Part shown: positions 9,912 to 25,509 of the stretch, in pieces
Layout: each line of letters opens with the position of its first letter
Position numbering within the stretch: the stretch's first letter is position 1
Assembly (NCBI GenBank): GCA_015056395.1
Contig: SVGK01000010.1
Span: 1-26,758 of the forward strand
DNA: 26,758 nt
Source: Clostridiales bacterium
GTDB taxonomy: Bacteria > Bacillota > Clostridia > Christensenellales > Aristaeellaceae
Reading direction: 5' to 3'
Made by a program: the position numbers and the translations under genes
Notes under the pieces: generated by a model
What the model saw: only the letters and a program-made list of their open reading frames with translations
Databases searched by the model: none
Told to the model about the DNA's origin: nothing

Positions 9912-10119
9912 TGTCATCGAAGTGGATGGCGTTGTCACGGAGTCGTATCCGAACGCCATGTTTGAAGTACAGCTGCCCAACGGGCACAAGGTATTGGCAC
10001 ACGTCTCCGGCAAGATGCGCATGAACTACATACGCATATACCCCGGCGACAAGGTGAAGATAGAGCTCTCGCCCTACGATCTGACCCGCGGCCGGATCAC
10101 CTGGCGTTCCAAGAGCTGA
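9898..10119 (+). CDS. infA: Translation initiation factor IF-1
   Basis: [41 protein letters not shown]...RITWR is a canonical S1-like IF-1. It has a TTG start codon overlapping the end of the preceding gene. Confidence 0.94.
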
Positions 10120-10162
10120 GCGACGACGCAGGTCGATGAGTAAGTAAGGAGGCTTGTTACCG

Positions 10163-10276
10163 ATGAAAGTGAGACCTTCTGTGAAGCCCATGTGCGAGAA
10201 GTGCAAGATCATCAAGCGCAAGGGCCGCGTGATGGTGATCTGCGAGAACCCCAAGCACAAGCAGAAGCAGGGCTAA
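10163..10276 (+). CDS. rpmJ: 50S ribosomal protein L36 (zinc ribbon, 37 aa)
   Basis: Not in the ORF track (<60 aa). Translating 10163..10276 by eye gives [47 protein letters not shown] lies at 10146-10152. Confidence 0.93.
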
Positions 10277-10296
10277 GGGGACCGCGATAATACGGC

Positions 10297-10331
10297 AGCG
10301 CCGGACGAATGTCCGGCGCTCAAGTGTTTTT
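10297..10331 (+). terminator. Rho-independent terminator ending the ribosomal cluster
   Basis: Perfect 10-bp stem AGCGCCGGAC-gaat-GTCCGGCGCT at 10297-10320, followed by caagTGTTTTT. It sits between rpmJ and the convergent minus-strand gene. Confidence 0.8.
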
Positions 10332-10339
10332 GGGCCGGC

Positions 10340-11578
10340 TCAGCTTCGTACCGCCTTCTTCAGCTTCTTTGCGATGCGCGCAGGCAGCAGGTCGGCGTGC
10401 GCGATCATCGCGTCGAGCAGCATATCAGGCAGCGCGCGTATCTCGTCCAGGGACATTTCGTCCAGCGCCTCCGCCATCTCCGCAAAGGTATCCTCCGGTT
10501 CCGCGTTGTCAAGGTGCTCTCTCATGTCGTCCGCGGCCTCGTCCAACCGATCCAGATCGTCCGTGACGGTCAGGCGGATGTTCGCCCTGCGGCAGAACTC
10601 TTCGAACAGGCACTTCGCCTCGTTCGAACGGACCCTGATCTCCTTGGGGTATCTGTCCTCCAGGCTTTCGATGAAGTGGTCCAGCATCGCGTCGGCGTCG
10701 TATGAGGGGACATTGCTCAGATGGGACACGTTCACAAGTCCATCCTCGTCCACGGACATCAGCATCGCGGGGAGGAACGGCGGGTCGCCTTCTATGGGGT
10801 GCGGCAGGCGCAGTATGTCGCACTCGTACACGCCCCGTTGCCTGTGCTTCATGAGCTTGGCTATGGCGATGTCGTTGATGCGGGTCGGCGTCGCGGGGAC
10901 AGGTTCGGCGTAAGGCGGCAGGGGTATGCGCTCCTGCTTCAATTTCCCGTCGACGATCGAATACAGCGGTATCGTCACACGGTCGCCGGAGAGACTGTCG
11001 AAGAGCCCCATCTGTTCCGCACCGTAGCACTGGTCGTGCCGGCCGACCACCACAGGCCGCAGCCCGAGCGACGACTTGCCGTGCGCCTTGATCTCCTCGC
11101 TCAGCCTGATCGCCACCCTGAGCGCCGTTTCGAGGAAGGTCCAGTCGTCGTCCTCCACGATATACCAGGGCAGGCAGTGCGGCCTGAAGCGCTGGAAATC
11201 CGGATATGGCGCGCGGAAGGGGATCCCCGCCGCGCTGCAGTATTCTCTGAGCATGTCGAGCTCGTCCGGCGCGAACCGGTCCCTCTGTTCGATGGAGCAC
11301 TGTATGCAATCCTGGCTCAGCATGTCGTCCATGCTGCCGTACACAAAGTCAGGCCCCGGATCGACGACCTTGCGGTATGTCGTGAAGCCCTCCGCGCCGA
11401 CGTACACGGACAGCGCCATGTGCTCGCCAAGGCTGCCCATGACGCAGCAGTAGCCGATCTCGCCCTGCCCATCGTTTGAAGGTATCCTGACGGCGAACAG
11501 CTCTTCTTCCGAGAGCTGCTTCCAGACCTTCGACTTGCGAAAGGCGTAGCCAAGGTCCAGGTAACGGTGATCGATCAT
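10340..11578 (-). CDS. Hypothetical cytoplasmic protein (412 aa), last gene of a three-gene minus-strand operon
   Basis: Long ORF with coding-like composition. Its start lies 25 nt downstream of the SGNH hydrolase stop. No family recognised by eye. Acidic C-terminal region. Confidence 0.7.
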   Translation of the reverse strand: MIDHRYLDLGYAFRKSKVWKQLSEEELFAVRIPSNDGQGEIGYCCVMGSLGEHMALSVYVGAEGFTTYRKVVDPGPDFVYGSMDDMLSQDCIQCSIEQRDRFAPDELDMLREYCSAAGIPFRAPYPDFQRFRPHCLPWYIVEDDDWTFLETALRVAIRLSEEIKAHGKSSLGLRPVVVGRHDQCYGAEQMGLFDSLSGDRVTIPLYSIVDGKLKQERIPLPPYAEPVPATPTRINDIAIAKLMKHRQRGVYECDILRLPHPIEGDPPFLPAMLMSVDEDGLVNVSHLSNVPSYDADAMLDHFIESLEDRYPKEIRVRSNEAKCLFEEFCRRANIRLTVTDDLDRLDEAADDMREHLDNAEPEDTFAEMAEALDEMSLDEIRALPDMLLDAMIAHADLLPARIAKKLKKAVRS

Positions 11579-11602
11579 ATGTGACGCTCCTTGATGGTCT
11601 TA

Positions 11603-12259
11603 TCACGCGAGCATCTCGCGTATCTTTTCCGCCACGACGGGCGCGAGCTTCGCGTGGTCCGCCCTGGAATAGTGCAGCCCGTCGAAATCGTTGATCTCGA
11701 AGCCGAGCTCCGCACAGTCGATGAAGCCGCAGCCGTGCCTTTCGGCGATGTCGCAGTACAGCGCGCCAAGCTGCAGGCTCTTTTGATAGGCCTCGTCGCC
11801 GAAGCGCGATGCGCTCCTGAGCTTGCCGATGTCCGGATGCGTCGGCGCGGGCGCGATCAGCAGCACCTTGGGCGCGGGATAACCGTAATAGCGCTGTTCA
11901 CACTCCCGCACCAGCATGTCCATGCCCTTGGCGATCATGCCCGCGGAGAGGTTGAAGTGGCGCTTGAGCTCGTTGCAGCCCAGCTGCAGCACGGTCAGAT
12001 CCAGCGGCGCGTGCGCGTCCAGCGCGACCCTGAGGCCAGTGATGCCCCTGCGCAGCGGGAAGTAGGGGTCTTCGACCATGATCGTGCGTCCGTTCAGCGC
12101 GTCCGTGACGACGTCGAACCCGTCGCCCAGCAGCGCGCGCACACGCCCGGGCCAGTGCTCGTCCTCACGCATGCGCCTGCAGGTGTCGAGCTCGGGGATG
12201 TACTGCGTGTGGTCATAGCCCCAGGTGTTGGAATCGCCGAATATCAGTATGCGTTTCAT
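11603..12259 (-). CDS. SGNH/GDSL-family hydrolase (esterase/lipase-like)
   Basis: N-terminal GDSNTWG (block I serine). A GxND-like block. C-terminal DGLHYS (catalytic Asp-x-x-His). ATGA start/stop overlap with the upstream gene. Confidence 0.85.
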   Translation of the reverse strand: MKRILIFGDSNTWGYDHTQYIPELDTCRRMREDEHWPGRVRALLGDGFDVVTDALNGRTIMVEDPYFPLRRGITGLRVALDAHAPLDLTVLQLGCNELKRHFNLSAGMIAKGMDMLVRECEQRYYGYPAPKVLLIAPAPTHPDIGKLRSASRFGDEAYQKSLQLGALYCDIAERHGCGFIDCAELGFEINDFDGLHYSRADHAKLAPVVAEKIREMLA

Positions 12260-12756
12260 GTGCGGATCCCCTTCGCTTCGTCCAGCGCCTTGCGTATCAG
12301 CACGATCTTGCGCTCGTCCTGTTTGTGCTTGACGTTCTTTCGATAGCCGTCCTTTGAGGAAGCCTCATAAACCCTGAGATAATCGGGAAGCGTCAAAAGC
12401 CCATAACGCGCGCCCTTCTCCTCGACGATCGGTATTCTGGATATGTCCACGCCGGCGAAGGGCCCGAGGCTCTCCAGCGAAGCGAAGGCCACGCTGACGC
12501 CGTCCCTTTCGAAGGCGTGCTCCGAGTCGTCATACAGCGCATAGCCCAGCGCCGCCATGGCCCGGCTGAGCATGGGCCAGGCCTCGCGCAGCAGGCGTTC
12601 GGGGACCAGCACGTCCACGTCGTCCGCGTCGAGACTGCGGTCCAGGCGTTCCTCGAGCCCCAGCGAACCAAACAACAGCGGTTCGACGCCGAAGCCCTCG
12701 TTCAACATGCGCGCGACCTGCAAAAATGCCGCGCGTTTCGCGCCGTCAGCTCTCAT
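12256..12756 (-). CDS. Nucleotidyltransferase-fold protein (Pol-beta-like NTase superfamily, 166 aa)
   Basis: Motif LLFGSLGLEERLDRSLDADDVDVLV fits hG[GS]-x(9-13)-DxD. The ATG at 12756 is preceded by AGGAGG 5 nt upstream. The longer ORF-track start at 12876 has no RBS and would read through the upstream hairpin. Confidence 0.7.
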   Translation of the reverse strand: MRADGAKRAAFLQVARMLNEGFGVEPLLFGSLGLEERLDRSLDADDVDVLVPERLLREAWPMLSRAMAALGYALYDDSEHAFERDGVSVAFASLESLGPFAGVDISRIPIVEEKGARYGLLTLPDYLRVYEASSKDGYRKNVKHKQDERKIVLIRKALDEAKGIRT

Positions 12757-12792
12757 GCGTCCTCCTGCGTGCGAACATCCCATCGTCCTCCA

Positions 12793-13345
12793 CAGCGGCG
12801 GCCTCCGGGCCGCCACGCTGTCCATCCGTTCCAGTCTGCGGTCAGTTCGAGGCGAGGAACAGCTTCCAGTCCTCATCTGATATGGAAAACTTGTCGACGA
12901 TCTCCTCGTCCGACCAGCCGGTGGTCAGGCGCAGCTTGCGTATCGTGTCGAAGAGGCTGTTCAAGCGCCCCTCGGCGCGTCCTTCTTCGCGTCCCTCTCT
13001 ACGTCCTTCTTCGCGCCCTTCCTGATAGATATCTTCAATGATGCTGCACATTGCACGTACCCCGTGGCCCCTCCGCAGCGGCGGCCTCCAGGCCGCCACA
13101 CCATCGTCCGTTCCCGCCTGCAATCAGTCCGAGGCGAGGAACAGCTTCCAGTCCTCGCTCGATATGGAGAGCTTGTCGACGATCTCCTCGTCTGACCAGC
13201 CTGTGGTCAGGCGCAGCTTGCGGATCGTGTCGAAGAGGCTGTTCAGGCGCCCCTCGGTGCGTCCTTCTTTGCGTCCCTCTTCGCGTCCTTCTTCGCGTCC
13301 TTCTTCGCGCCCCTCCTGATAGATATCTTCCATGATCTTGCACAT
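12793..13345. repeat. Two tandem ~270-284-bp direct repeats (~88% identity) spanning the 3' end of the Rpn-type gene plus its downstream GGCGGCC-n4-GGCCGCC hairpin
   Basis: Copy 1 is ~12793-13060 and copy 2 is ~13077-13345. Both begin CAGCGGCGGCCTCCRGGCCGCCAC and contain ...CGAGGCGAGGAACAGCTTCCAGTCCTC... Confidence 0.85.
12842..13051 (-). pseudogene. Duplicated C-terminal fragment (~69 aa) of the adjacent Rpn/YhgA-type nuclease gene
   Basis: MCSIIEDIYQEGREEGRREGREEGRAEGRLNSLFDTIRKLRLTTGWSDEEIVDKFSISDEDWKLFLASN is ~85% identical to the last ~70 aa of the 13124..13996 product. It arises from a 284-bp tandem DNA duplication. Confidence 0.75.
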
Positions 13346-13996
13346 TTCAAGCGCCCCCTTTGGGTCGTCCTTATAATACCCGCTTCGTTCCGCCATCTCC
13401 TCGTACAGCATATCCCCGGGATCGCTGCACAGGAAATCGTGCATCAGCTTTCCCAGCGCGTCGTCGCCCCTGTACTGGCCGTTGACATACAGTATGTGTT
13501 CGCGGTCGTCGAAGGGCGCGCCGGTGCCCAGGTTGATGCGCTCGACCGGATAAAGCCCCTTCCCCATGCGGAACACGTCGTGCTCCGTGATGAATATGAC
13601 ATAGGTCTCCGGCAGCGCCCTGAAGGGCTGTCCCGCGCTCAGAGCTTCGATGTCCATCGCGGCTGAGTGGTACCGGGCGCGCTCCGGCTCGGCGCCCTCG
13701 TCCGCGCGCTGCACCTCGATGTCATACTGCCTGTGCTTGCTGTCCGTGGCGTGCACGTCCAGCGTCACGGACCGTGCGCCGGCCAGCCGCTTCATGTCGC
13801 GCTGCGTCTCCGCGCCGGTGAGCACCAGGTCGTCCTTGTCCAGTATGATCCTCAGCACGAACTGCGCAAACGGCAGATCGTCGCGGAACATGCAGCGCAT
13901 GAACACGTCGTCAATGGGACGCAGCTGCGCAAGCCGCGCAAGGCTCCGCTCCGTGAACTGCCTGCGCCAGGCCTCGTCGATGTTCATGGCGCACAC
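13124..13996 (-). CDS. Rpn/YhgA-like PD-(D/E)XK family recombination-promoting nuclease / putative transposase
   Basis: The D...IEVQ core (LDVHATDSKHRQYDIEVQRA) is typical of the transposase_31/PDDEXK families. The C-terminal EGREEGREEGREEGRKEGRTEGR repeats and the LNSLFDTIRKL...WSDEEI tail are hallmarks of this family. Confidence 0.75.
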   Translation of the reverse strand: MCAMNIDEAWRRQFTERSLARLAQLRPIDDVFMRCMFRDDLPFAQFVLRIILDKDDLVLTGAETQRDMKRLAGARSVTLDVHATDSKHRQYDIEVQRADEGAEPERARYHSAAMDIEALSAGQPFRALPETYVIFITEHDVFRMGKGLYPVERINLGTGAPFDDREHILYVNGQYRGDDALGKLMHDFLCSDPGDMLYEEMAERSGYYKDDPKGALEMCKIMEDIYQEGREEGREEGREEGRKEGRTEGRLNSLFDTIRKLRLTTGWSDEEIVDKLSISSEDWKLFLASD

Positions 13997-14162
13997 CTCC
14001 TCTGCTCCGAATCTATTATATCATGGATACGAACGGCGCGCAAGGTGTTCGCAGCGCGTTGCGTTTCGGTTAATTGCATTCGGATGGTATAGACCCCTTG
14101 AAATCAGCGTCCACATAGATTATACTAATGTAAATAGGTATGCCCTGAAGGAGAGTGAGCCC

Positions 14163-15923
14163 ATGAGCAAGTTCTTTATCGAATGCCCGGCCTGTCACCG
14201 CTACAGCCAGGCCTCCACGTCCCTGTTTGCCAGCCGGCGCATACGCTGCGCCTGCGGCTTCACCATCGACGTCAAGGCGGACCGCATCACCACGCGCGTC
14301 TGTCCGTCCTGCGGCAATTCCATCGCTTTCGACCAGGCGAAGGGCGCGACGGCGAAGTGCCCCATATGCAGGGCGCAGCTGCTCACGCCGGAGAGCATGA
14401 ACAGCCTGGTCACGTTCGCGTGCCGCACCTGCGGCTGCACGCTGCAGGCGAACAAGGGCGCGCAGCAGATCACGTGCCCCCTGTGCGACACGGTCAACGA
14501 CGTGCAGGCCGAGGTCAAGCTCGCGGCGCAGCGCGCGCAAGGCACGCCGCAGGTCATACGCTACGAGGGCGACAACATGACGTTCGTCTGGCGGCACCCC
14601 GCGACGGACTTCGTGATGGGCTCGCAGCTGATCGTGCACGAGAGCCAGGAGGCTCTGTTCTTCCGCAACGGCGAGGCGCTGGATTCGTTCCCAGCGGGAC
14701 GCTACACGCTCGAGACCGCGACGCTGCCGCGCATGAATGGCCTGCTGCCGCTGCCTGTGCAGGGACAGCCCTTCCACGCGGAGGTCTTCTTTGTCAACCT
14801 GACCACGCAGATGGGCATCAAATGGGGCACCAACAGCAAGGTCGGACTGTTCGACCCGGCCAGCGGCCTGCATGTGGAGCTGGGCGCGTCCGGCAGCTTC
14901 AACCTGCGCGTGACGGACCCGCGGCGGCTCGTGATCCGCCTGGTCGGCACCACGGACAGGCTGACGCAGGAGCAGGTGTTCGGGCACGACGGCGGCTACT
15001 TCCGCACGCTGGTCATGACGAAGGTCAAGGCGAACCTCGCGCGCGTGATCAGGGAGAACCGCATATCCGTGCTGGAGCTGGACCAGCACATCGACGTGAT
15101 CGGCGAGGCGCTGCGCACGCAGATCAACGCGGAGTTAGAGGAATACGGCATGACCATGCCTGAGTTCTACGTCGCCAACATACTGACGCCGGACGACGAC
15201 CCGAACTTCAGGCGCATGAAGCAGCAGCACGCGGAGCTCTACCTGCGCACGCGCGAGGAGGAGATCCGTAAGGCCGAGGCGGAGGCGGCGTTCGAGCGCA
15301 AGGCGGTCGAGGCGCAGACGCAGGCGCGCATGAAGGTGATCGGCGCGCAGGGCGAAGCCGACGCCATGCGCATACAGGCGCAGGCCCAGGCGGACGCCTA
15401 CCGCATGCAGGCGGAGGCGGAGGCGCAGGAGATGCGCATGAAGGGCTACACCTACCAGCAGGAGACGACGCGCCAGGTCGCCACGGAGGCGGTCAAAAAC
15501 GGCGGCGCGGGCGGCTTGGCCGGCGACGTGACGGGCGTGCTGGGTGGCGCGATGCAGCTGGGCCTCGGCCTGGGCGCGGCCGGCAGCGTGATCGGCATGA
15601 CGAAGGACGCGCTGGGCGCGATGAACGCGGCCGTGCCGCAGGCGCCCGCCGCGACGGACGACGGCTGGACGTGCGAGGGCTGCGGCTGCACGGGCAACAC
15701 GACGAACTTCTGCCCGAACTGCGGGCGGCGGCGGCCCGAGGCAGGCTGGACGTGCCCGGGCTGCGGGCAGGCGGGCATCACGACGAACTTCTGTCCGAAC
15801 TGCGGGAGGCGACGGCCCGAGGCGGGCTGGACGTGTCCCGGCTGCGGGCTCACGGGCATCACGACGAACTTCTGTCCGAACTGCGGCGCCAAGAAGGGTG
15901 AGAAGGGAGATGTCGAGGGATGA
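14163..15923 (+). CDS. SPFH/Band-7 (YdjI-like, Band_7_1) domain protein fused to multiple zinc ribbons
   Basis: RBS GAAGGAGAG at 14148-14156, then ATG at 14163; the ORF-track start at 13650 is an unsupported extension. The N-terminus has three CxxC...CxxC pairs. The central segment (IRYEGDNMTFVWRHPATDFVMGSQLIVHESQEALFFRNGEALDSFPAGRYTLETATLP...FHAEVFFVNLTTQMGIKWGT) resembles B. subtilis YdjI-type SPFH. An A/E/Q-rich coiled coil, a Gly-rich linker, and three GWTCPGCG..TTNFCPNCG zinc-ribbon repeats follow. Confidence 0.8.
   Translation: MSKFFIECPACHRYSQASTSLFASRRIRCACGFTIDVKADRITTRVCPSCGNSIAFDQAKGATAKCPICRAQLLTPESMNSLVTFACRTCGCTLQANKGAQQITCPLCDTVNDVQAEVKLAAQRAQGTPQVIRYEGDNMTFVWRHPATDFVMGSQLIVHESQEALFFRNGEALDSFPAGRYTLETATLPRMNGLLPLPVQGQPFHAEVFFVNLTTQMGIKWGTNSKVGLFDPASGLHVELGASGSFNLRVTDPRRLVIRLVGTTDRLTQEQVFGHDGGYFRTLVMTKVKANLARVIRENRISVLELDQHIDVIGEALRTQINAELEEYGMTMPEFYVANILTPDDDPNFRRMKQQHAELYLRTREEEIRKAEAEAAFERKAVEAQTQARMKVIGAQGEADAMRIQAQAQADAYRMQAEAEAQEMRMKGYTYQQETTRQVATEAVKNGGAGGLAGDVTGVLGGAMQLGLGLGAAGSVIGMTKDALGAMNAAVPQAPAATDDGWTCEGCGCTGNTTNFCPNCGRRRPEAGWTCPGCGQAGITTNFCPNCGRRRPEAGWTCPGCGLTGITTNFCPNCGAKKGEKGDVEG
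15657..15899 (+). repeat. Three near-perfect 81-bp (27-aa) tandem repeats inside the SPFH gene, each encoding one C4 zinc ribbon
   Basis: GGCTGGACGTG recurs at 15663, 15744 and 15825 with an exact 81-nt period. The encoded units are GWTC[EP]GCGxxGxTTNFCPNCGRRRPEA. Confidence 0.9.
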
Positions 15924-16579
15924 AGAACGGTAAGGGCCATTTCCTTGCGCTTTGGGCCATCGCGCTGGCGCTGTTCGTGGTGCTGGCGCTGGCGATACCT
16001 TTTGCGCGGACGCCGGTGTACTGGATCGGCTTTTGCGCGACGCTTTTGATGTTCGCCGTAGTGACGGCGGCATTCATGCGCGCGTTCAGGGACGGGCGGT
16101 CGCTCGAGAGCGCGCTGCTGGGCTGGCCCATATTCAAGTGCGGCGCACTGGCGCTCGGCGCGCAGCTGATCGCGGGCTTTGCGCTGATGGCGCTGGCGCG
16201 CGCGCTCGGCGTCACCGCGGCTGTGGTGATCGAGATCGTGCTGTTCGGCTGCGCGGCGGCGGTGCTGGTCGCGCGGGACGCGGCGCGCGCCGCTGTCGAG
16301 CAGACGGAGGCGCGCGTGCGGGATGACACCGGCGCGTGGAAGGCACTGCGCGCGCAGGCGAGCGCGTTCGCGGCGGCGGCCGGCAGCGACGCGGCGCGCA
16401 AACTCGCCGACGACATACGCTTTGCGGACCCGAGGCCCACGGACATGGACGGCGATATCGCGCAGGCCGTGGGCGCGCTGGGCGCGGACGCGGCGGACGA
16501 GGATATCGAGCAGGTCAGAAAGATGGTCGGAAGGAGAAACGCGCTGGCGAAGGCGGGGAAGAAGGAAATGCAGAATTGA
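15920..16579 (+). CDS. Small membrane protein (about 4 TM helices, Ala-rich cytoplasmic C-terminus), translationally coupled to the SPFH gene
   Basis: ATGA overlap with the upstream stop (15920-15923). Hydrophobic segments are HFLALWAIALALFVVLALAI, VYWIGFCATLLMFAVVTAAF, GALALGAQLIAGFALMALA and AAVVIEIVLFGCAAAVLV. Confidence 0.75.
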   Translation: MKNGKGHFLALWAIALALFVVLALAIPFARTPVYWIGFCATLLMFAVVTAAFMRAFRDGRSLESALLGWPIFKCGALALGAQLIAGFALMALARALGVTAAVVIEIVLFGCAAAVLVARDAARAAVEQTEARVRDDTGAWKALRAQASAFAAAAGSDAARKLADDIRFADPRPTDMDGDIAQAVGALGADAADEDIEQVRKMVGRRNALAKAGKKEMQN

Positions 16580-16613
16580 TAATTCAGAATTCAGAATTAA
16601 GAATTAAGAATGG
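16580..16613. repeat. AT-rich heptamer microsatellite (AATTCAG x2, AATTAAG x2) directly after the stop codon
   Basis: taATTCAGAATTCAGAATTAAGAATTAAGAATgg contains two EcoRI sites. It is an AT island in an otherwise >65% GC context. Confidence 0.7.
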
Positions 16614-16664
16614 ATAGCCCGGAGACCCGAACGTGCGGGTCCCCCGCAATGCCCCGAACGACCT

Positions 16665-17655
16665 CGTAGCGGTGGCGTCTACGCCGCCATATCCCTCGCC
16701 ATTCCCGCCAGGGAATGCGAAACGACCGAAGGACCTCATCCGGCCCTCACGGGCCACCTTCCCCAAAGGGCAACGCTGTCAACTTTGAACAAGGACATAA
16801 CAAATCATAGATATACGTCGTCCAGCGGGAATGGCGGCTGATAGCCGCCGCTACGGATCACATGATCTGCAAATGTAACCGCATAAACGGCACGGGATCG
16901 TCTTAAGTTGACAGCGTTGCCCCAAAGGGGAAGGCAAGGTCCGCCATTCAATATACGATCCGCCGTCGTACCTCGCCCATCGGTCCCGAGGACGATGATC
17001 AACAGACAAAGAGACGATCGGCCCACGAATGTACCCATATCACAGCTCGGCACGCCCGATCCTCGCCCGGAGCGGCGTCCTGTCGACGCCGTCTCCGCGA
17101 CAAAACCTCGAGCCGTCCGCTCCTATCCGACCTTGATCCCCGAGCTGACGTGGCCCGTTGGACCGCGTACAGCACAGCCACCGCGCCGAAGGCGCGGCGC
17201 GAAGCGTCCTTGAGGGTCCTCATGCTGTCTGCTAAACTGAAGCACACGGCGGCGTGATAAGGTTTCGTTTCCAACCTCTCACCCGTCGCCGTGGCCTCAT
17301 ACAAGCAGACAGCAGGAGGTTCATCAAGGATGGCGGCCGGACGAGGTATCCGTCCCCCCCAACGACCCCGTAGCGGCGGCTATCAGCCGCCACATCCCTC
17401 GCCATTCCCAACAGACAAGCCGAAACGACCGAAGGACCTCATCCGGCCCTCACGGGCCACCTTCCCCAAAGGGCAACGCTGTCAACTTAAGGCGATCCCG
17501 TTTTGGTTGTGCAGCTACATCTGCAGATCGTGTGATCCGTAGCGGCGGCTATCAGCCGCCATTTCCGACGCACAACGTATACCCGTGATTTGTTATGGTC
17601 TTGTTAAAAGTTGACAGCGTTGCCCCAGAGGGGAAGGCAAGGTCCGTCATTTGAA
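16665..17655. mobile_element. Non-coding MITE-like composite repeat: ~115-bp inverted arms (16827-16943 and 17455-17566) around a ~500-bp core, with extra partial copies on both sides
   Basis: The left arm and the reverse complement of the right arm align at ~85% (GGAATGGCGGCTGATAGCCGCCGCTACGGATCACAYGATCTGCA...CTTAAGTTGACAGCGTTGCCC...). Direct repeats 16665-16786 and 17369-17488 share an identical 66-bp block at 16721-16786 and 17424-17488. There is a further fragment at 17609-17652. The only ORFs here are spurious GC-frame ORFs. Confidence 0.6.
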
Positions 17656-17791
17656 TACAAGATCGACCGCACCCCCCAGAATCACGGCCAGCGTTCGATC
17701 TCCGGCCAATAATTCCGAAACACCCGGAGGGTGTCTAGCGAAGCGTCGATTCCGAATTACCCCATCCCCCCACGACCAAAGGAGCAACACC

Positions 17792-20700
17792 ATGATCATC
17801 TTCAAATGCAAATCCTGCGGCGGCGACCTGTCCTTCGAGCCGGGCGCGAGCGTCGCGGAATGCCCCTACTGCGGCGTGAAGCAGACGCTGCCGAAGCTGG
17901 ACGACGACAAGCGCGCGAACCTCTACGACCGCGCCAACCACTTCCGCCGCCAGAACGAGTACGACAAGGCCATGGCGATCTACGAGCAGATACTGTCCGA
18001 GGACCGCACGGACGCCGAGGCGTACTGGTCGCTGGTGCTGTGCCGCTACGGCATAGAGTACGTCGAGGACCCCGTTACGCGCAAGCGCGTGCCCACGGTC
18101 AACCGCGCGCAGTACGCCTCCGTGCTGGCGGACGACGACTACAAGTCGGCGCTTCAATACGCGGACCCTGCGCAGCGCGTGCTCTATGAATCGGAGGCGG
18201 AGGCCATCGCGGAGATACAGCGCGGCATATTGGACATCTCGCGCAAGGAGCAGCCCTTCGACGTGTTCATCTGCTACAAGGAGACGGACGCGAACGGCCG
18301 CCGCACGCCGGACAGCGTGCTGGCGACGGACCTGTACCACCAGCTGACGAAGGAGGGCTTCCGGGTATTCTTCTCGCGCATCACGCTGGAGGACAAGATC
18401 GGCACGGCGTACGAGCCGTACATATTCGCGGCGCTGAACAGCGCGAAGGTGATGGTGGTGCTGGGCACGAAGCCGGAGTACTTCAACGCGGTGTGGGTGA
18501 AGAACGAGTGGAGCCGCTACCTTGCGCTGATACGCGCGGGCGCGGAGAAGGTGCTGGTGCCCGCGTACCGCGACATGGACCCCTATGACCTGCCGGAGGA
18601 GTTCGCGCACCTGCAGGCGCAGGACATGGGCAAGCTGGGCTTCATGCAGGACCTGATACGCGGCATCAAGAAGCTGACCGCGAAGGACGATCCGAAGCCC
18701 GCGCGGCCCGCAGCGCAGACCGTGGTCGCGGGCCCCGGCGCGAACATAGAGAACCTGATGAAGCGCGCGCGGCTCTTCATGGAGGACGGCAACTGGATGA
18801 GCGCCACGGAGTACCTGGACAAGGTGCTGGACGAGAATGCCGAGTACGCGCCCGCCTACGCGGGCAAGGTGCAGGTCTCGCTGCGCATGAAGCGGGAGGC
18901 CGAACTGGCCGGGAGCCTCACGGACTACGAAGGCGACCCCGACTGGCAGAGGGCGCTGCGCTTTGCCGCGCCCGAACAGCGGAAGGTTTACGAGGGGTAC
19001 GCGGCGCAGGCGGCGGAGGCGCGGGAGGAGAAGCGCAAGGAAGACATCTATGCCGGAGCGGCCGCCATGCTCGCAAAGGCCGATACGCCCGCCGCGTGCC
19101 GCGCGGCGAAGGCGGAATTTGCGAAGATCCCGCTGCACAGGGACGCGGGCGCGAAGGTGCGCGAGTGCGAGGAGAAGGCGAGGCGCATCGAATACGACGC
19201 GCTCCTCACCAGATACAAGGACGTGGCCAGGGACTATAACAGCGTCTCAAAGGCCGAGAGGCTTGAGGCGCTTGCGGCGGAGTTCGATGCGTTCAGGGGC
19301 ACCGACATGCCCGGGCGCTGCCGCGCGGAGGCGGAGCAGTGCCGCGCGGCGCTCTATGACGAGGCCGCCGAGGCCATGCGGAAGAGCGCGCAGGCACAGC
19401 AATTCGAAAAGGCGGCGGAGCTGTTCAGACGGCTGGGCGCCTACAGGGACGCGCAGGCGCAGGCGCGAAAGTGCTCGGACAGCGCGGCGGAAGTCAAACG
19501 CGCCGACGAGCTGCGCGCCGCGCGTGAACGCGAGGAGCAGGAGCGCAGGATAGAGAAGGAGCGCGCCAGACAGAAGAGGAACAGGGTGCTCCTGTCGTTG
19601 CTGGTGCTCGTGCTGGCGGCGGGCGCGCTGGCCTATCTGTACGTGCTGAAGCCCATGATGGCCTATGACAAGGCGGTTGGGGCGATGGAGGCGGGAAACT
19701 ACGACGAGGCGACGGCGCTGTTTGAAGAGATGGGAGACTACAGGGACGCCGCTGTACAGGCGCAGGAGAGCCAATACAGGAAGGGTCTGTCGTTGATGAA
19801 CAGCGGAAAATACGATGCGGCTGTAGAGGTGTTCAACAGTATCGGCAGTTACGGCGATAGTTCCGCAAAGGCAAAACAGGCACAGGCAGACAAATTGTTT
19901 GATGCGGGATATTACGCCGAAGCGTATGCGGCATACATCGCATTGGATTCGGAGTATCAAACACATAAAGACGATTACGAGCAGATGTACGTCGATGCAT
20001 CGAGGCTGTTTGCGGATGGTGATTATGATGGCGCCAGCATGGCGTTTAATTCGATCGCGGGATACAAGGATTCAACAACACAGGCAAAGGAGAGCCAATA
20101 CCAGAAGGGCCTGTCGTTGATGAACAGTGGGCAATATGATGCAGCTGTAGAGGTATTCAACAGTATCAGCAGTTACGGCGATAGTTCTACGAGAGCAAAA
20201 CAGGCACAGGCAGATGAATTGTTTGCTGCGGGGAATTACGCCGAAGCATATATGGTTTACGCCGCATTGGATACGGGATATCAAACACACAAAGACGATT
20301 ACGAGCAAATGTACGTCGATGCATCGAAGCAATTTGCGGATGGTGATTATGACGGCGCCAGCAAGGCGTTTAATTCAATTGCAGGATACAAGGATTCAGT
20401 AACACAGGCAAAGGAGAGCCAGTACCAGAAGGGCCTGTCGTTGATGAACAGCGGGCAATATCATGCAGCTGCGGTGGCATTCAAGAGCCTTGGCAGTTAC
20501 AACGACGCCGCGACACAAGCGCAGGAGAGCCAGTACCAGAATGGCCTGTCGTTGATGAAAATTGGGCAATACGATGCGGCTGTGGAGGTATTCAAGAGCC
20601 TTGGCAGTTACAACGACGCTGCGACACAGGCGCAGGAGAGCCAATATCGGAAAGGCATGTCGTTGATGGAGAGCGAGGAGTATGATGCGGCTACGGAGGT

Positions 20701-21484
20701 GTTCGATGGCCTCAGTAATTACAACGACGCCGCGACAAAAGCGCAGGAGAGCCAGTACCTGAAGGCGGCGGCGCTGAACACAGCGGAGAATTACGATGAA
20801 GCTTATCTGGTCTATGCGTCCATAGCCGGCTATAAGGATGTTGACAGCATCGTCAAAAACGACGGTAATATTTCAGCAGCAGCCTGGCGCGCGCAGTTAT
20901 ACGTCGGCAATACGGTGACCTTCGGCGCGTACGACCAGGACGGCGATACCTCAAACGGCGCGGAGGCCATCGAATGGATCGTGCTGGCGAACGACGGCAA
21001 GACGGCGACGCTGATTAGCAGATACGGTCTGGACGCGAAGCCCTACAACACTGAACAAGAATATGTGACCTGGGAGACATGCACGCTGCGGAAATGGCTG
21101 AACGGCGATTTCCTGAACGCGGCCTTTTCGGCGGACGAGAGGGCGAAGCTTGAAACGGTCAAGGTCACGGCGGACAGGAATCCCAAGAATTTTATCGATC
21201 CCGGCAACGACACGCAGGACAAGGTCTTCCTGCTGTCCATAGACGAGGCGAACAAGTATTTCAGCTCTGATTCGGACCGCATGTGCAAGCCCACGAAGAC
21301 GGCAGTCAAGAATGGAGCAAGCACGAACAGCTCGGGTGCGTGCTGGTGGTGGCTGCGGTCGCCCGGCTACTATCCTAGCCTCGTCGCATACGTCCGCGAC
21401 GACGGTTCGGTCTACTACGACGGCTGCGGTGTCTACAACGGCGATCTCGCTGTTCGGCCGGTCGTGGTGCTGCGGCTTTCATAG
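17792..21484 (+). CDS. Large single-pass membrane protein (1230 aa): N-terminal zinc ribbon, TPR-like region, TIR domain, helical repeat region, TM helix, ~12 degenerate 37-38-aa extracytoplasmic repeats, DUF6273-like C-terminal domain
   Basis: RBS AAAGGAG at 17778-17784 and ATG at 17792 (MIIFKCKSCGGDLSFEPGASVAECPYCG); the ORF-track start at 17651 is an unsupported extension. The TIR region at ~18254-18680 reads QPFDVFICYKETD...EGFRVFFS...VMVVLGTKPEYFNAVWVKNEWSRYLAL, with the conserved W-x3-E at 18494-18508. The TM helix RVLLSLLVLVLAAGALAYLYVL lies at ~19585-19650. Repeats fit the pattern G.Y.DA..QA.ESQY.KG. The C-terminus (TVTFGAYDQDGD...IEWIVLANDGKTATLISRYGLD...VTWETCTLRKWLN...KVFLLSIDEA...ACWWWLRSPG...AVRPVVVL) matches my recollection of DUF6273. 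Confidence 0.8.
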   Translation: MIIFKCKSCGGDLSFEPGASVAECPYCGVKQTLPKLDDDKRANLYDRANHFRRQNEYDKAMAIYEQILSEDRTDAEAYWSLVLCRYGIEYVEDPVTRKRVPTVNRAQYASVLADDDYKSALQYADPAQRVLYESEAEAIAEIQRGILDISRKEQPFDVFICYKETDANGRRTPDSVLATDLYHQLTKEGFRVFFSRITLEDKIGTAYEPYIFAALNSAKVMVVLGTKPEYFNAVWVKNEWSRYLALIRAGAEKVLVPAYRDMDPYDLPEEFAHLQAQDMGKLGFMQDLIRGIKKLTAKDDPKPARPAAQTVVAGPGANIENLMKRARLFMEDGNWMSATEYLDKVLDENAEYAPAYAGKVQVSLRMKREAELAGSLTDYEGDPDWQRALRFAAPEQRKVYEGYAAQAAEAREEKRKEDIYAGAAAMLAKADTPAACRAAKAEFAKIPLHRDAGAKVRECEEKARRIEYDALLTRYKDVARDYNSVSKAERLEALAAEFDAFRGTDMPGRCRAEAEQCRAALYDEAAEAMRKSAQAQQFEKAAELFRRLGAYRDAQAQARKCSDSAAEVKRADELRAAREREEQERRIEKERARQKRNRVLLSLLVLVLAAGALAYLYVLKPMMAYDKAVGAMEAGNYDEATALFEEMGDYRDAAVQAQESQYRKGLSLMNSGKYDAAVEVFNSIGSYGDSSAKAKQAQADKLFDAGYYAEAYAAYIALDSEYQTHKDDYEQMYVDASRLFADGDYDGASMAFNSIAGYKDSTTQAKESQYQKGLSLMNSGQYDAAVEVFNSISSYGDSSTRAKQAQADELFAAGNYAEAYMVYAALDTGYQTHKDDYEQMYVDASKQFADGDYDGASKAFNSIAGYKDSVTQAKESQYQKGLSLMNSGQYHAAAVAFKSLGSYNDAATQAQESQYQNGLSLMKIGQYDAAVEVFKSLGSYNDAATQAQESQYRKGMSLMESEEYDAATEVFDGLSNYNDAATKAQESQYLKAAALNTAENYDEAYLVYASIAGYKDVDSIVKNDGNISAAAWRAQLYVGNTVTFGAYDQDGDTSNGAEAIEWIVLANDGKTATLISRYGLDAKPYNTEQEYVTWETCTLRKWLNGDFLNAAFSADERAKLETVKVTADRNPKNFIDPGNDTQDKVFLLSIDEANKYFSSDSDRMCKPTKTAVKNGASTNSSGACWWWLRSPGYYPSLVAYVRDDGSVYYDGCGVYNGDLAVRPVVVLRLS
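19766..20413 (+). repeat. Two tandem 324-bp (108-aa) intragenic direct repeats (~88% identity) within the extracytoplasmic repeat region of the TIR protein gene
   Basis: GAGAGCCAATAC recurs at 19766, 20090 and 20414 with an exact 324-nt spacing. This stretch (~19690-20830) has visibly lower GC (~50%) than the 5' half of the gene (~70%). Confidence 0.85.
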
Positions 21485-21607
21485 TCAAATCGTTAATCTT
21501 TACTCTTCAAATCCTCTGGCGTGCAAGCGCCATGATCCCGGCAGTGCCGCGAACAGACCTTATCCTGCAGGAGCGAGAATCATTGAGTACAAAGAGGTGA
21601 ACAGAAT

Positions 21608-22492
21608 ATGAACGGAAGACCAGGCATCCTCTTTCTCGGCAACGGCATCAACCGACTGTTCAATGACGATCCGTGGGACAAGATGATCCGCGACCAGCTC
21701 GCCCTGTCGGGCCATCGCTACACGTGGGAACAGATCAGGAACATACCGCCCACGATGCAGATCGTACTTGCGACGAACGATCAGGTCGACGCCCGCCTCA
21801 AGCAGATCGCAAAGGAGCTGGAACAACAGCGCATACAGGACGAACGCGCCGCTTTCCTGCGCAGGCTCGCCGGTATGGATGTCGACTGCGTAATGACGGC
21901 GAATTATTCTCTCGAGATCGAAAAGGCATTCGGGCTGAAGGAAAGCTGCGCCTCCTACAGGCGGCGCCTGAACAGGACCATCGAAGCAAACGGCCTGCGC
22001 GACGATTTTCGTCTGTACCAATATTATCCCCTCGAGCGGGCGGACGGAAGGACGATGCCGCTTTGGCACGTGCACGGCGACATCGCGAAGCCTCGCTCCA
22101 TGATCATGGGCCATTACTACTACGCAAGGCATCTGCGCGAGATACAGGACCGCGTCGGCGTTATGATGCGCGTCGTTCGGGGCTGTGAACGGGCCGGCTC
22201 GACGTTCCATCCGCAAAGCTGGGTCGATGCGTTTCTGATAAGCGACGTGTTCATGCTCGGCTTTGGGCTGTATCTGTGTGAGTCCGATTTGTGGTGGCTG
22301 CTCTGCTGCAAGAAGCGCAACTTCCCCGATACGAAGGTGTTCTTCTACGGCGAGGCGACGAATGATGTCCGGCTGCTGCTGGAGGCCTATGGCGGCGAAA
22401 CGCAGGACGAGATCAGCCGGATCGGAGAAGACGGCTATATGCGCTTTTATGAAAGGGCGATCGCGGATATCGAACGAAAGCTGGAACATTAG
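21608..22492 (+). CDS. Stand-alone SIR2-like (SIR2_2 / DSR-ThsA-type sirtuin fold) protein, 294 aa, no additional sensor domain
   Basis: The N-terminal ILFLGNGINRLFNDDPWDKMI fits the SIR2_2 consensus lFlGAGxS...PxW..L. VMTANYSLEIEKA fits TTNYDxLlE (catalytic Asn retained). LWHVHGDIAKPRSMIMGHYYY fits iyKlHGs...lvlt.edY (catalytic His retained). DVFMLGFGLYLCESDLWWLL fits llfiGYSl.D. RBS AAAGAGGTG lies upstream. The gene is 124 bp downstream of, and co-directional with, the TIR gene. Confidence 0.65.
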   Translation: MNGRPGILFLGNGINRLFNDDPWDKMIRDQLALSGHRYTWEQIRNIPPTMQIVLATNDQVDARLKQIAKELEQQRIQDERAAFLRRLAGMDVDCVMTANYSLEIEKAFGLKESCASYRRRLNRTIEANGLRDDFRLYQYYPLERADGRTMPLWHVHGDIAKPRSMIMGHYYYARHLREIQDRVGVMMRVVRGCERAGSTFHPQSWVDAFLISDVFMLGFGLYLCESDLWWLLCCKKRNFPDTKVFFYGEATNDVRLLLEAYGGETQDEISRIGEDGYMRFYERAIADIERKLEH

Positions 22493-22574
22493 TTGGATGT
22501 CCAGAGGGACAAGGACCGCGATCCTGCATGATCGGTGTCATTGATGTATGTCCTGCCCATGCCCTCAATAACGT

Positions 22575-23545
22575 ACCACCGTAGGGACGCCCCATGGGGC
22601 GTCCGCGTGCCCGATCCCGGCACGCACCGCGCAACGTCTTTACGAACCGCATCCCGTAGGGACGCCATTCATGGCGTCCGCCGCGCGTGAGCGCACCGTT
22701 ATCCGTTTCCCCGCAGGGCGCGTTTTCCCCGCGATCCGCCATTGCGGACACACGCAGGGGGAACGTGGCGGCGTAGACGCCGCCGCTACGGATGTTGTTA
22801 TATCACTTGAAGGATGGCGGACAAGGCGCGGCAAGCAACGCTCCTGCGGCGACACATCGCCGCCATTCCGTACACCGACCGTCCTGTCGCCCACGCCGCA
22901 CAGAGCATGACCCTCCGTAGGGACGCCCCATGGGGCGTCCGCGTGCCCGATCCCGGCACGCACTGCGCAACGTCTATACGAACCACATCCCGTAGGGGCG
23001 CCATCCATGGCGCCCGCGCCCTCATCCCGGCATGAACCGCGCAACATCCACACGAAACCGCATCCCGTAGGGACGCCATTCATGGCGTCCGCCTGCGCGT
23101 GAGCGCACCGTTATCCGTTGCCCTACAGGACGCATATCCCCCGCGATCTGCCATCATGAACACGGGGCACGTGGCGGCGCAGACGCCGCCGCTACGGGTG
23201 TTGTTATATATCACCTAACGATGGGGGCGGATGGGGCGCGGCAAGCGACGACCCTGCGGCGACACATCGCCGCCATTCCGTACACCGACCGCCCTGTCGC
23301 CCGCGCCGCACAGAGCATGACCCTCCGTAGGGACGCCCCATGGGGCGTCCGCGTGCCCGATCCCGGCACGCACTGCGCAACGTCTATACGAACCACATCC
23401 CGTAGGGGCGCCATCCATGGCGCCCGCCCGCGCGTAAGCGCACCGTTATCCGTGGCCTCCCAAGGCGCATATCCCCCGCGATCCGTCATCACGAGCGCGG
23501 GGGAACGTGGCGGCGCAGACGCCGCCGCTACGGGTGGTGTTCTTG
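22575..23545. repeat. Three tandem non-coding units (~330, ~420, ~230 bp), each with a perfect 20-bp palindrome GGACGCCCCATGGGGCGTCC, a second palindrome GGRCGCCATYCATGGCGYCC ~75 bp later, and a GTGGCGGCG-yAGA-CGCCGCCGCTACGG hairpin
   Basis: Palindrome A occurs at 22585, 22919 and 23339. Palindrome B or variants occur at 22660, 22995, 23080 and 23413. The CGCCGCCGCTACGG hairpin occurs at 22773-22800, 23171-23198 and 23507-23535. Sequence between the palindromes is itself repeated, so these are not CRISPR spacers. Confidence 0.8.
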
Positions 23546-23603
23546 GACCACCTTTCGCATTTGCGAGCAACGAGTGGTGGATGAGGGCGCAGCATTTTAC
23601 ATG

Positions 23604-23645
23604 AGGGCCTGTTCCCTTCGCGAGAGGGAACGGGCCCTTTTCTTA
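23604..23645 (+). terminator. Stem-loop GGGCCUGUUCCCU-ucgcgag-AGGGAACGGGCCC followed by TTTTCTTAT; terminator-like, first of two near-identical copies
   Basis: 13-bp stem with one G-U pair plus a T-tract on the + strand. It lies immediately 3' of the minus-strand SWIM gene stop (23648), so it is probably bidirectional. The second copy is at 24097-24140. Confidence 0.55.
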
Positions 23646-23647
23646 TG

Positions 23648-23983
23648 TCATTTGCCGAGCACGGTTTCCGCAAACCTGTCGCGGCAGCGCTTTTCAAGCT
23701 CTTTTTCCTGCTGCTTTTTGTAGGCGATGTATTCAAGTACGGCGTTTTTGTCGATGACGCCGCATTCGAGCATGAGGCGGGCGATGTGCTTGCACGGGGC
23801 GTCCTTCTTCTTTCCCCTGATCTGGAAATCGGGGCAGTCGCATTCTTCGAGCGTCGCGTGGTAGATGTCGCCGTTGGAGCCGACGAACACGGCGGAGGGC
23901 ACGCCGGTTTCGATCGACTGCACATTCACGTCCAAGGCGCGAATAGCGGTCTTGTCGTCGAGGTTCCTGTAAGAAATTGCCAT
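23648..23983 (-). CDS. Small SWIM zinc-finger protein (111 aa)
   Basis: CDCPDFQIRGKKKDAPCKHIARL matches the SWIM CxCxnCxH signature. RBS AAAGGAAG lies 6 nt before the ATG at 23983. GC is intermediate. Confidence 0.7.
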   Translation of the reverse strand: MAISYRNLDDKTAIRALDVNVQSIETGVPSAVFVGSNGDIYHATLEECDCPDFQIRGKKKDAPCKHIARLMLECGVIDKNAVLEYIAYKKQQEKELEKRCRDRFAETVLGK

Positions 23984-24096
23984 GGGGATGCACTTCCTTT
24001 CTGGTCGATGCGGTTATGAGGTGCATATCAGCTTTCGAACGGTGATGTATAATAGAAATGCAAATCGGACAAGTGGTGTTGGCTGATTTTGCATGT

Positions 24097-24140
24097 GGGC
24101 CTGTTCCCTTCGCGAGAGGGAACGGGCCTTCTTATTTCTT
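24097..24140 (+). terminator. Second copy of the GGGCCTGTTCCCTTCGCGAGAGGGAACGGGCC stem-loop plus TTCTTATTTCTT, abutting the stop of the minus-strand secreted-protein gene
   Basis: Identical 32-bp hairpin and similar flank (ATTTTRCATGWG upstream) to the copy at 23604. Confidence 0.5.
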
Positions 24141-24689
24141 GGTCGGGGCAACAACAAGCAAATAACTTTCGATGTATTCGGGGTTCCAGATGTAATAGGT
24201 GGCATAGCGGCCAATGTGATAGGGGATACGCGCGCCGGGCGTCAAGATGGATCCTGCATTTCTGAAAACATTCATAGTCTTCTCATAGAACCCTTTTGAA
24301 TCGGACATTATGGACAAAACCTGATCATGCGATATATTCGGGAAACTTGTGTACTCAAGCGCAGAATACAGGGCCATGAGCTTGAAGGCGTCTTCAACAG
24401 ACAAGTCGTCAGTGGATATGTTGACGTTCAACGGAAAATCTACAGACAATGTAGCGAAAGATGAAGCATCGTACTGAATCGTAATCATGTCATAGCCCAT
24501 CGCGGAAGTGGCATCGTTCACATCGGCAAAAACTGGGTCAGCTTTGAACGGATAGCCATACAGCGAACACCATCCAGCATATGTGGCTGCAATCCTTGAA
24601 GGCGTATCAAAGCCGGACGAAGCATCTGCGAGAGCGAAACCGGACAATATGAGTGCGAGCAAGAGCAGTATAACAACAAGTCTTTTCAT
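24132..24689 (-). CDS. Secreted hypothetical protein with N-terminal signal peptide (185 aa), lower-GC gene
   Basis: ATG at 24689 preceded by GGAGGTG with a 7-nt spacer. MKRLVVILLLLALILSGFALADAS is a signal peptide. The ORF-track start at 24734 lacks an RBS. GC is ~45-50% versus >65% for flanking DNA. Confidence 0.7.
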   Translation of the reverse strand: MKRLVVILLLLALILSGFALADASSGFDTPSRIAATYAGWCSLYGYPFKADPVFADVNDATSAMGYDMITIQYDASSFATLSVDFPLNVNISTDDLSVEDAFKLMALYSALEYTSFPNISHDQVLSIMSDSKGFYEKTMNVFRNAGSILTPGARIPYHIGRYATYYIWNPEYIESYLLVVAPTKK

Positions 24690-24747
24690 GTGAAACACCT
24701 CCATTAGGTCCATATTCCGTGACGGCACGTTCATGGATTCAGGATAA

Positions 24748-25131: not shown

Positions 25132-25150
25132 GGAATCTCACCTCAAAAGA

Positions 25151-25179: not shown

Positions 25180-25219
25180 GACAAATCCTTAAATAATGAG
25201 AATTAATTGATAAAATGGC

Positions 25220-25248: not shown

Positions 25249-25291
25249 ATATCCACGCTCTTAAAATTTAAGAGATTGAGAGGTGGTTAAT

Positions 25292-25507: not shown

Positions 25508-25509
25508 AT

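Follow-up and report, generated by a model that had tools for sequence, protein, structure and literature searches.

Organization of the Locus

The stretch of DNA analyzed here (the window) covers 26,758 nucleotides of contig SVGK01000010.1 from a Clostridiales bacterium. It is a segment of a bacterial chromosome. Positions 1–10,200 hold a ribosomal-protein/SecY/Adk/Map/InfA/L36 cluster, and this is followed by accessory genes for a DUF7309/DUF6930 protein, a GDSL hydrolase, a PD-(D/E)XK protein, a Band_7 protein, a membrane protein, a TIR protein and a SIR2-like protein. The features under study lie in a gap of 1,212 bp that separates the membrane-protein gene from the TIR gene. [quoted passage not shown] The features of the gap and of the genes around it are as follows.

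14163–15923: Band_7 protein gene
15920–16579: gene for a 219-aa membrane protein, with its stop codon at 16577–16579
16567–16612: heptad tandem repeat AGAATTA, about 5.7 copies (Tandem Repeats Finder), overlapping the membrane-protein stop codon and outside the mobile elements
16651–16760, plus strand: host repeat unit 1, left part, a direct repeat with 17354–17463
16666–16688: GTAG-tagged REP-like hairpin variant in the left part of unit 1
16700–16717: hairpin CATTCCC-GCCA-GGGAATG in the left part of unit 1
16731–16741: module GGACCTCATCC in the left part of unit 1
16742–16755: hairpin GGCCC-TCAC-GGGCC in the left part of unit 1, followed by CCTT(CCCC), the left half of the target hairpin
16761–16770: left target-site duplication of MITE-1, CCCCAAAGGG, with the identical 10-mer at 16920–16929
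16771–16919, plus strand: MITE-1, 149 bp, with terminal inverted repeats CAACGCTGTCAACTT at 16771–16785 and 16905–16919
16833–16854, minus strand: internal GTAG-tagged hairpin of MITE-1
16920–16929: right target-site duplication of MITE-1, CCCCAAAGGG
16930–16948, plus strand: host repeat unit 1, right part, GAAGGCAAGGTCCGCCATT
16949–17353: spacer of 405 bp (the "core" of the initial annotation), unique, GC-rich and hairpin-rich
17354–17463, plus strand: host repeat unit 2, left part
17368–17392: GTAG-tagged REP-like hairpin CCGTAGCGGCGGCTATCAGCCGCCA in the left part of unit 2
17434–17444: module GGACCTCATCC in the left part of unit 2
17445–17458: hairpin GGCCC-TCAC-GGGCC in the left part of unit 2
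17464–17473: left target-site duplication of MITE-2, CCCCAAAGGG
17474–17622, minus strand: MITE-2, 149 bp, inverted relative to MITE-1, with terminal inverted repeats at 17474–17488 and 17608–17622
17539–17560, plus strand: internal GTAG-tagged hairpin of MITE-2
17623–17632: right target-site duplication of MITE-2, CCCCAGAGGG, with one mismatch to the left copy (9/10)
17633–17651, plus strand: host repeat unit 2, right part, GAAGGCAAGGTCCGTCATT
17652–17791, plus strand: leader of the TIR gene, unique sequence, with the ribosome-binding site AAAGGAG at 17778–17784 and ATG at 17792
17792–21484: TIR_2-TPR-DUF6273 gene, 1,230 aa

Anatomy of the Repeat Units

Alignment of 16640–16960 with 17343–17663 shows two direct copies of one unit, the center excepted. 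The unit is a hairpin-rich host repeat of about 140 bp, and its copies, each interrupted at the same point, span 16651–16948 and 17354–17651. To the left of the center, 16683–16785 matches 17386–17488 at 93%, and a single indel extends this match back to about 16651/17354; to the right, 16905–16948 matches 17608–17651 at 95%, and both matches have the same 703-nt spacing. The central 119 bp, in contrast, are unalignable in direct orientation and identical at 98/119 positions as the reverse complement. In both units, perfect inverted repeats enclose this central segment, and 10-bp direct duplications lie outside them. Unit 1 reads CCCCAAAGGG / CAACGCTGTCAACTT ... AAGTTGACAGCGTTG / CCCCAAAGGG, at 16761–16770 / 16771–16919 / 16920–16929, and unit 2 follows the same order at 17464–17473 / 17474–17622 / 17623–17632, with CCCCAGAGGG as its right 10-mer. 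The 15-mer terminus occurs four times in the window against an expectation of 0.04, and the perfect inverted termini reach 18 bp when the palindromic duplication is counted.

The opposite orientation of the two 149-bp elements accounts for a pair of inverted arms of 155 nt (16768–16922 and 17471–17625), which are 86% complementary and 548 nt apart. The initial annotation had described such arms at 16827–16943 and 17455–17566, with partial head-to-tail copies on each side. These repeats exist, and the 155-nt arms contain or overlap both intervals, but the boundaries had to be redrawn, as the arms measure 155 nt rather than about 115. The perfect hairpin GGCGGCT-ATC-AGCCGCC and the palindrome noted at the same time were also recovered, the former three times (16833–16854 on the minus strand, 17370–17391 and 17539–17560) and the latter, CCCCAAAGGGG, at 16920–16930.

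The site that received each element can be reconstructed. When the MITE and one duplication are removed and the empty unit is folded, a perfect hairpin, CCTTCCCC-AAA-GGGGAAGG, is restored within a Y-shaped module closed by GGACCT/AGGTCC. The right-hand GAAGGCAAGGTCCGCCATT segment completes both this hairpin and the closing stem. The target hairpin is of the C4-loop-G4 type.

The claim that no credible open reading frame (ORF) lies in the gap also held. Five ORFs of 60–101 aa gave no Pfam match, and the stop-free frames have a flat GC content of about 0.6 at the three codon positions (GC1/GC2/GC3), as against a GC3 of 0.76–0.93 in the real genes here. The gene calls on other metagenome contigs leave the gap empty, and the 149 bp of the MITEs contain no ORF. 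The 405-bp spacer likewise has no coding signal, no Pfam match and no similarity to other parts of the window or to the loci retrieved; it is sequence between two host repeats, hairpin-rich non-coding DNA. Within it, positions 17207–17330 form a 124-nt imperfect palindrome with 27-nt arms at 85% and a nested inner stem. No flanking duplication, Rfam match or copy in the data compared was found for this palindrome, which might be a relic of another small element.

Autonomous Relatives and the Identity of the Elements

Metagenome and genome contig collections were scanned with the 18-mer GGGCAACGCTGTCAACTT. The metagenome scan returned mostly isolated matches, and two contigs, L033 and L037, were informative. 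In both, a stretch of 1,498 bp lies between the MITE termini and has a single long ORF for a 432-aa protein, which matches Pfam DDE_Tnp_1 (PF01609) at 59.1 bits (cutoff 23) and the NCBIfam IS4 family transposase model NF033592 at 155.2 bits (cutoff 115). Within the transposase of L037, the sequence LYLNRWKIEINYDFLK fits the YREK motif in full, as Y-(2)-R-(3)-E-(6)-K. A search for homologs of this protein gave about 22 clusters at 61–100% identity, almost all on contigs of 1.5–3 kb, and such short contigs are expected because multi-copy ISs collapse in assembly.

Thirteen full copies of the IS, 1,446–1,499 bp in length (L033, L037 and L051–L061), carry CAAC(G/A)CTGTCAACTT at both ends; L062, whose contig stops before the right end of the IS, was left out of this count. 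Perfect 10-bp duplications flank the copies in L033 (CCTGAAAGGG), L051 (CCCCGAAGGG) and L054 (CCCCAAAGGG). Nearly all of the flanks are palindromes made of a C-run, a short loop and a G-run, often literally CCTTCCCC...GGGGAAGG, and flanks such as ...GTGG|CAAC place the beginning of the element at CAAC. The hallmarks of the IS4 family are the YREK motif, duplications of about 10 bp, 5′-CA ends and a length of 1.15–1.8 kb (PMC2266710). The relatives of about 1.5 kb fall within this description, with their 10-bp duplications, 5′-CAAC ends and lengths of 1,446–1,499 bp.

The 149-bp elements are read as MITEs of this new REP-targeting IS because they have the same termini, the same 10-bp duplications and the same hairpin target. 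Both copies measure 149 bp and have perfect 15-bp termini. Their duplications match at 10/10 positions in MITE-1 and 9/10 in MITE-2, and the duplication length is that of L033, L051 and L054. The likeness to the transposase-encoding IS goes beyond the termini at one end, where it runs for 34–39 nt. In MITE-1, the end that resembles the left end of the IS is 16771, and the first 34–36 nt match the 1.5-kb copies; in MITE-2, it is 17622, with a 39-nt match of 87.5% on the reverse strand. The GC content of the elements (0.49 for MITE-1 and 0.50 for MITE-2) is also that of the IS (0.50), as compared with about 0.61 for the host or window and 0.66 for the host repeat. Moreover, L033 provides unoccupied sites for comparison, since it holds two uninterrupted host modules of the form GACCTCATCCG-hairpin-CACCTTCCCC-AGA-GGGGAAGGC.

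One of the ISs, the P0008-type, lies in CCTTCCCC-loop-GGGGAAGG hairpins and was found in four of the eight samples that carry this locus. It differs from the MITE termini at one position, at which other IS copies use both variants. The shared samples and the hairpins of the same sequence make the P0008-type IS a plausible source of transposase in trans.

The initial annotation had set target-site duplications and the significance of the arms as checks on a mobile origin, and both came out for mobile elements: each element has its duplication, and the significance of the arms is high. Its description of the repeats as MITE-like was thus right as to the kind of element, and it erred in the anatomy, which is that of two 149-bp MITEs rather than one element with a core of about 500 bp.

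Several observations weigh against the reading of the 149-bp elements as MITEs of this IS. Only two diverged copies of the MITE were seen, both in the window, and the genome and metagenome collections, scanned with the 18-mer, yielded no further MITE of this kind. Nor did a six-frame chimeric translation of unit 2 find any match among 5.8 billion proteins. The full-length IS is linked to the locus only at the level of shared samples. Beyond the terminal 15–39 nt or so, the interior of the MITE is unrelated to the IS, so that the MITE is not a simple recent deletion derivative. In addition, several IS contigs have flanks without matching duplications, a mismatch that probably reflects the collapse of repeat copies in assembly. 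Finally, a parse into 18-bp repeats with a 4-bp duplication fits most copies, the target being palindromic; this parse was rejected, as L033 needs another length and several IS flanks lack GGG.

The metagenome collection did not return the locus itself and is, therefore, incomplete for this organism. The genome contigs gave 15 single matches in unrelated taxa, none with paired termini, and our own arithmetic estimates about 17 chance matches for that scan. The viral contigs gave none.

Three further contigs deserve mention. A metagenome-assembled genome of Oscillospiraceae (L014) carries CCCCACAGGGGCAACGCTGTCAACTT beside other hairpins, which may be a solo end. The metagenome contigs L007 and L008 end at window positions 16888 and 16874, 104–118 nt inside MITE-1 and roughly one assembler k-mer beyond the junction of MITE and hairpin. 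Contig ends of this kind would be expected if those communities held near-identical MITE copies at other places, for which they are indirect evidence only.

L033 holds a second, smaller element as well. Positions 1635–1881, directly after the full-length IS, form a 247-bp element with related, partly degenerate termini, and the duplication CCTGAAAGGG occurs three times in a row around the IS and this element. Its interior contains the two unoccupied host hairpin modules, in inverted orientation. The 247-bp element represents either another type of MITE from this IS family or a tandem insertion.

Proposed Mechanism and Insertion History

By analogy with other IS4-family members, the MITE would be moved by DDE cut-and-paste chemistry. 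The transposase of a full-length IS, supplied in trans, would bind the CAAC(G/A)CTGTCAACTT ends and make 10-bp staggered cuts in a preferred G+C-rich C4-N3-5-G4 palindrome, and repair of these cuts would leave the 10-bp duplication. It is proposed that the near-symmetry of the target permits insertion in either orientation, so that two independent insertions into paralogous host repeats could have produced the observed flip.

The insertion history can be read in another way, namely as the duplication of an already occupied host repeat followed by the flipping of one MITE through recombination between its own inverted termini. This sequence of events is distinctly less probable, though it is the best of the alternatives. 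It would account for the fact that the two MITEs occupy exactly one and the same site in the host repeat, share the sequence of the duplication and are both 149 bp long, and for flanks that are 93–95% identical. An identical position is, however, expected in any case, because target preference is strict across about 14 IS copies. Moreover, the MITE interiors differ at 21/119 positions (17.6%) and the host flanks at 9/117 (7.7%; Fisher p = 0.03), so the interiors are the more diverged, and no flipped state was seen in five other assemblies. From these sequence comparisons, two independent insertions into paralogous host repeats are favored.

Could the Gap Encode a Regulatory RNA?

The initial annotation had also raised a structured RNA locus. 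In this reading, the gap would be a structured non-coding RNA, for example a long 5′ leader or a small RNA, that regulates the TIR operon. The predicted folds are very stable: those of the units come to about −122 to −130 kcal/mol with z near −6, and the spacer is highly structured in its own right, with z values of −6.4 on the plus strand and −5.5 on the minus strand. Hairpin A of the host module, in addition, differs in sequence between organisms and remains a hairpin. Against this, the stability derives from transposon termini and REP-like palindromes, and the covariance models of Rfam 15, run on the whole window, gave no match at the gathering score, with chance-level matches only at E ≤ 5. 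The orthologous copies of the locus are 99.9–100% identical and leave no covariation to test. Between the two copies, the main stem has its interior reverse-complemented, a state incompatible with a conserved RNA sequence or structure; a reverse-complemented hairpin interior is a DNA-level signature. An RNA of this kind is, therefore, very improbable, and the suggestion in the annotation was not borne out.

If transcribed, each MITE is predicted to form a stem of about 32 bp, at which transcripts running on into the TIR gene could be blocked or processed. An outward promoter from the TTGACA in the termini was considered and rejected, as no acceptable −10 lies at 16–18 nt. On the plus strand of the leader (17652–17791), no σ70-like promoter was detected. 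The start of the TIR gene at 17792 agrees with the gene calls on other contigs.

Inverton and Single-Element Readings

Perfect inverted repeats around a short segment upstream of a gene, with both orientations represented in two paralogous units, recall the invertible promoters of gut bacteria. The 119-bp segments would then be invertons, flipped by a site-specific recombinase for phase-variable control of the TIR gene. This is very improbable. The repeats are the ends of a transposase-encoding IS with 10-bp target duplications, a signature of transposition, and, unlike in the gut-bacterial invertons, the two orientations occur at two paralogous sites. No promoter-like site was found within 16786–16904 or 17489–17607, and there is no invertase or integrase among the window genes scanned against Pfam or in the gene calls of related contigs. 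Five independently assembled contigs (L001–L004 and L006) are collinear with the window at 99.9–100%, which is a weak point since these are consensus assemblies. The case teaches a lesson of method: target duplications and transposase-encoding relatives should be checked before a segment with inverted repeats at its ends that occurs in two orientations is called an inverton.

The single non-autonomous element of about 740–850 bp proposed at first would move as a unit, with arms of about 115–155 bp as its termini, and would have brought or bounded the TIR-SIR2 genes. It can draw on the 155-nt inverted pair (86%) around 548 bp and on a strain variant (L005) that loses collinearity at the end of unit 1, but it is equally improbable. 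Each arm is a complete element that has two termini and a duplication to itself. On their inner sides, the arms are flanked by the missing halves of host hairpins, which implies two separate insertions into two host repeats. The breakpoint in L005 (16949), a variant that keeps MITE-1, is the end of a host repeat rather than of a MITE, and the TIR gene is not enclosed by the pair. There is no indication of gene transport by the MITEs, so that delivery of the TIR-SIR2 cassette, as once suggested, finds no backing. The term "TIR-SIR2 cassette" is itself only loosely supported, because the SIR2_2 match of the 294-aa SIR2-like protein (23.4 bits) falls just under the Pfam cutoff of 24.5. Neither this protein nor the TIR protein matched a defense-system model significantly in PADLOC.

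Host Repeats and Strain Variation

The host repeats themselves belong to a wider population of hairpins. A scan for GTAG ahead of a perfect G+C stem of 6 bp or longer gave 13 sites in the 26.8-kb window, as compared with 1.2 in shuffles, and all of these sites are intergenic. They belong to the two units, the interiors of both MITEs and a tandem cluster at 22480–23550. In the host repeats and the MITE interiors, the tag reads CCGTAG(C/G)GG and precedes a G+C stem of 7–8 bp. The hairpins are G+C-rich palindromes of 20–40 bp with an unpaired GTAG tag, repeated in the window, and in this they match the definition of GTAG-tagged REPs (PMC3733652). The same survey reports GTAG repeats in Proteobacteria, Cyanobacteria, Chloroflexi and the PVC group, with Firmicutes unmentioned (PMC3733652).

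The cluster at 22480–23550, between the SIR2-like and SWIM genes, comprises three tandem units of about 336–410 bp with the GTAG-tagged hairpins CCGTAGGGACGCCCCATGGGGCGTCC and CCGTAGGGGCGCCATCCATGGCGCCC, and CCGTAGCGGCGGCGTCTACGCCGCCA on the minus strand. Further copies of its repeats occur at 26056–26133. One unit of the array (about 410 bp, window 23018–23427) is missing from L001, which makes the array variable in length from sample to sample. REP clusters at 16651–17651 and 22480–23550 thus bracket the TIR and SIR2-like genes.

The strain variant L005 has the same Band_7 and membrane-protein genes and is identical through MITE-1 and host repeat 1. It diverges at window position 16949, exactly where units 1 and 2 stop matching. 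After the breakpoint (L005 3688–3993), unrelated sequence, with a terminator-like hairpin and a small membrane-protein gene on the minus strand, replaces the spacer, unit 2 and the TIR gene. A look-up by the Band_7 protein returned no contigs of the L005 type that were longer. The position of the breakpoint at the end of a host repeat, together with the variation in the number of array units, indicates that the repeats mark a variable junction. To this extent, the notion that the repeats delimit the TIR-SIR2 genes retains weak support, from L005, with the boundary at the end of host repeat 1.

In principle, the repeats could offer substrates for homologous rearrangement. A more ambitious and improbable extension is that the host repeats and their nested MITEs serve as joints for strain-swap recombination of accessory or defense-type genes, here the TIR-TPR-DUF6273 gene and the SIR2-like gene beside it, with the stems insulating the cassette from upstream transcription. 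The MITEs are probably without a dedicated cellular function and amount to selfish-DNA litter.

Relation to Known Elements

REP-homing ISs are known in five families, and these include an IS4-family member, ISRm22 (PMC1525189). All copies of ISRm22, which belongs to subgroup IS4Sa of the IS4 family and was described in Sinorhizobium meliloti, lie in repetitive extragenic palindromes (PMC1525189). ISRm22 shows marked target conservation, and the features listed for IS4Sa include an end consensus of CA------T and duplications of 8–10 bp (PMC2266710). The IS described here is likewise an IS4-family DDE element in REPs, its ends fit CA------T, and its 10-bp duplication falls within the range of IS4Sa. 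It differs from ISRm22, with which it was compared by description only, in its host, an uncultured high-GC bacterium, in its C4-loop-G4 hairpin target and in having derived MITEs. The closest annotated plasmid-borne transposases are no more than 31% identical to its transposase.

Other ISs that insert into REP palindromes in intergenic clusters are IS1397 and ISKpn1 of the IS3 family and IS621, ISPpu9 and ISPpu10 of the IS110 family (PMC1525189). These use other transposase families and another chemistry, in contrast to the classical DDE IS4-type ends and duplications found here. Members of the IS110 family employ a DEDD recombinase with a guide RNA and lack typical inverted repeats and duplications.

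MITEs already described in bacteria include RUP, NEMIS/Correia, Bcr1, ERIC and Nezha (PMC3733652), and the MIC231 cassettes derive from IS231 (PMC2266710). Like these bacterial MITEs, the present family consists of non-coding, gene-adjacent elements within the 70–300 bp and 15–30-bp terminal inverted repeats that are usual for them, with strong hairpins and termini of the kind recognized by a transposase. What sets it apart is the combination of CAACGCTGTCAACTT ends, a 10-bp duplication in a palindromic target and an internal GTAG-tagged hairpin. The GTAG tag and G+C stem in the host repeats and MITE interiors also recall the GTAG REPs and REPINs mobilized by RAYT (TnpA-REP) proteins; the hairpin targeted by the IS (CCTTCCCC...GGGGAAGG), by contrast, has no GTAG tag. 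No RAYT (Y1/TnpA-REP) gene occurs in the window.

This work defines a previously unnamed IS4-family IS of about 1.5 kb, with CAAC(G/A)CTGTCAACTT ends, a 10-bp duplication and a strong preference for C4-loop-G4 palindromes; at least one MITE family derives from it. Its hosts are uncultured high-GC bacteria in which GTAG-tagged REP-like hairpins also occur. The 1.2-kb non-coding gap is explained in turn, and it is no longer a candidate for a regulatory RNA, an invertible switch or a cassette-carrying element. The MITE pair has no demonstrated bearing on the working of the TIR gene.

Other Features of the Window

Short tandem repeats comparable with the AGAATTA heptad next to unit 1 were observed elsewhere. 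Repeats of 6–8 nt (GAAATGA..., GGAGTGT...) lie beside hairpin clusters in unrelated Clostridia-like contigs, at 110–290 in L010 and 55–100 in L054.

The ribosomal-protein cluster usually continues after rpmJ with rpsM-rpsK-rpsD-rpoA. These four genes were not seen after rpmJ (L36) in window 10200–26758, where the next genes are the accessory ones, the TIR locus among them. The accessory island may interrupt or end the conserved cluster.

Repeats also occur within the accessory genes. The PD-(D/E)XK (PDDEXK_2) gene has a duplicated 3′ end (12825–13021 and 13107–13303; 197 nt, 89%), and the duplication includes 12-nt repeats coding for GREE/GRKE and leaves a 69-aa gene fragment that is annotated in L001. 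At the C-terminus of the Band_7 protein, three tandem 81-nt repeats (15663–15905) correspond to three zinc-ribbon modules (GWTCxGCG...NFCPNCG). The SWIM-domain gene is bracketed by 51-nt direct repeats of 90% identity (23594–23644 and 24086–24136), each with a terminator-like hairpin (GGGCCTGTTCCCTTCGCGAGAGGGAACGGGCCC). In the adjoining region, 24000–25500, the G+C content falls to 43–52%, which suggests foreign DNA.

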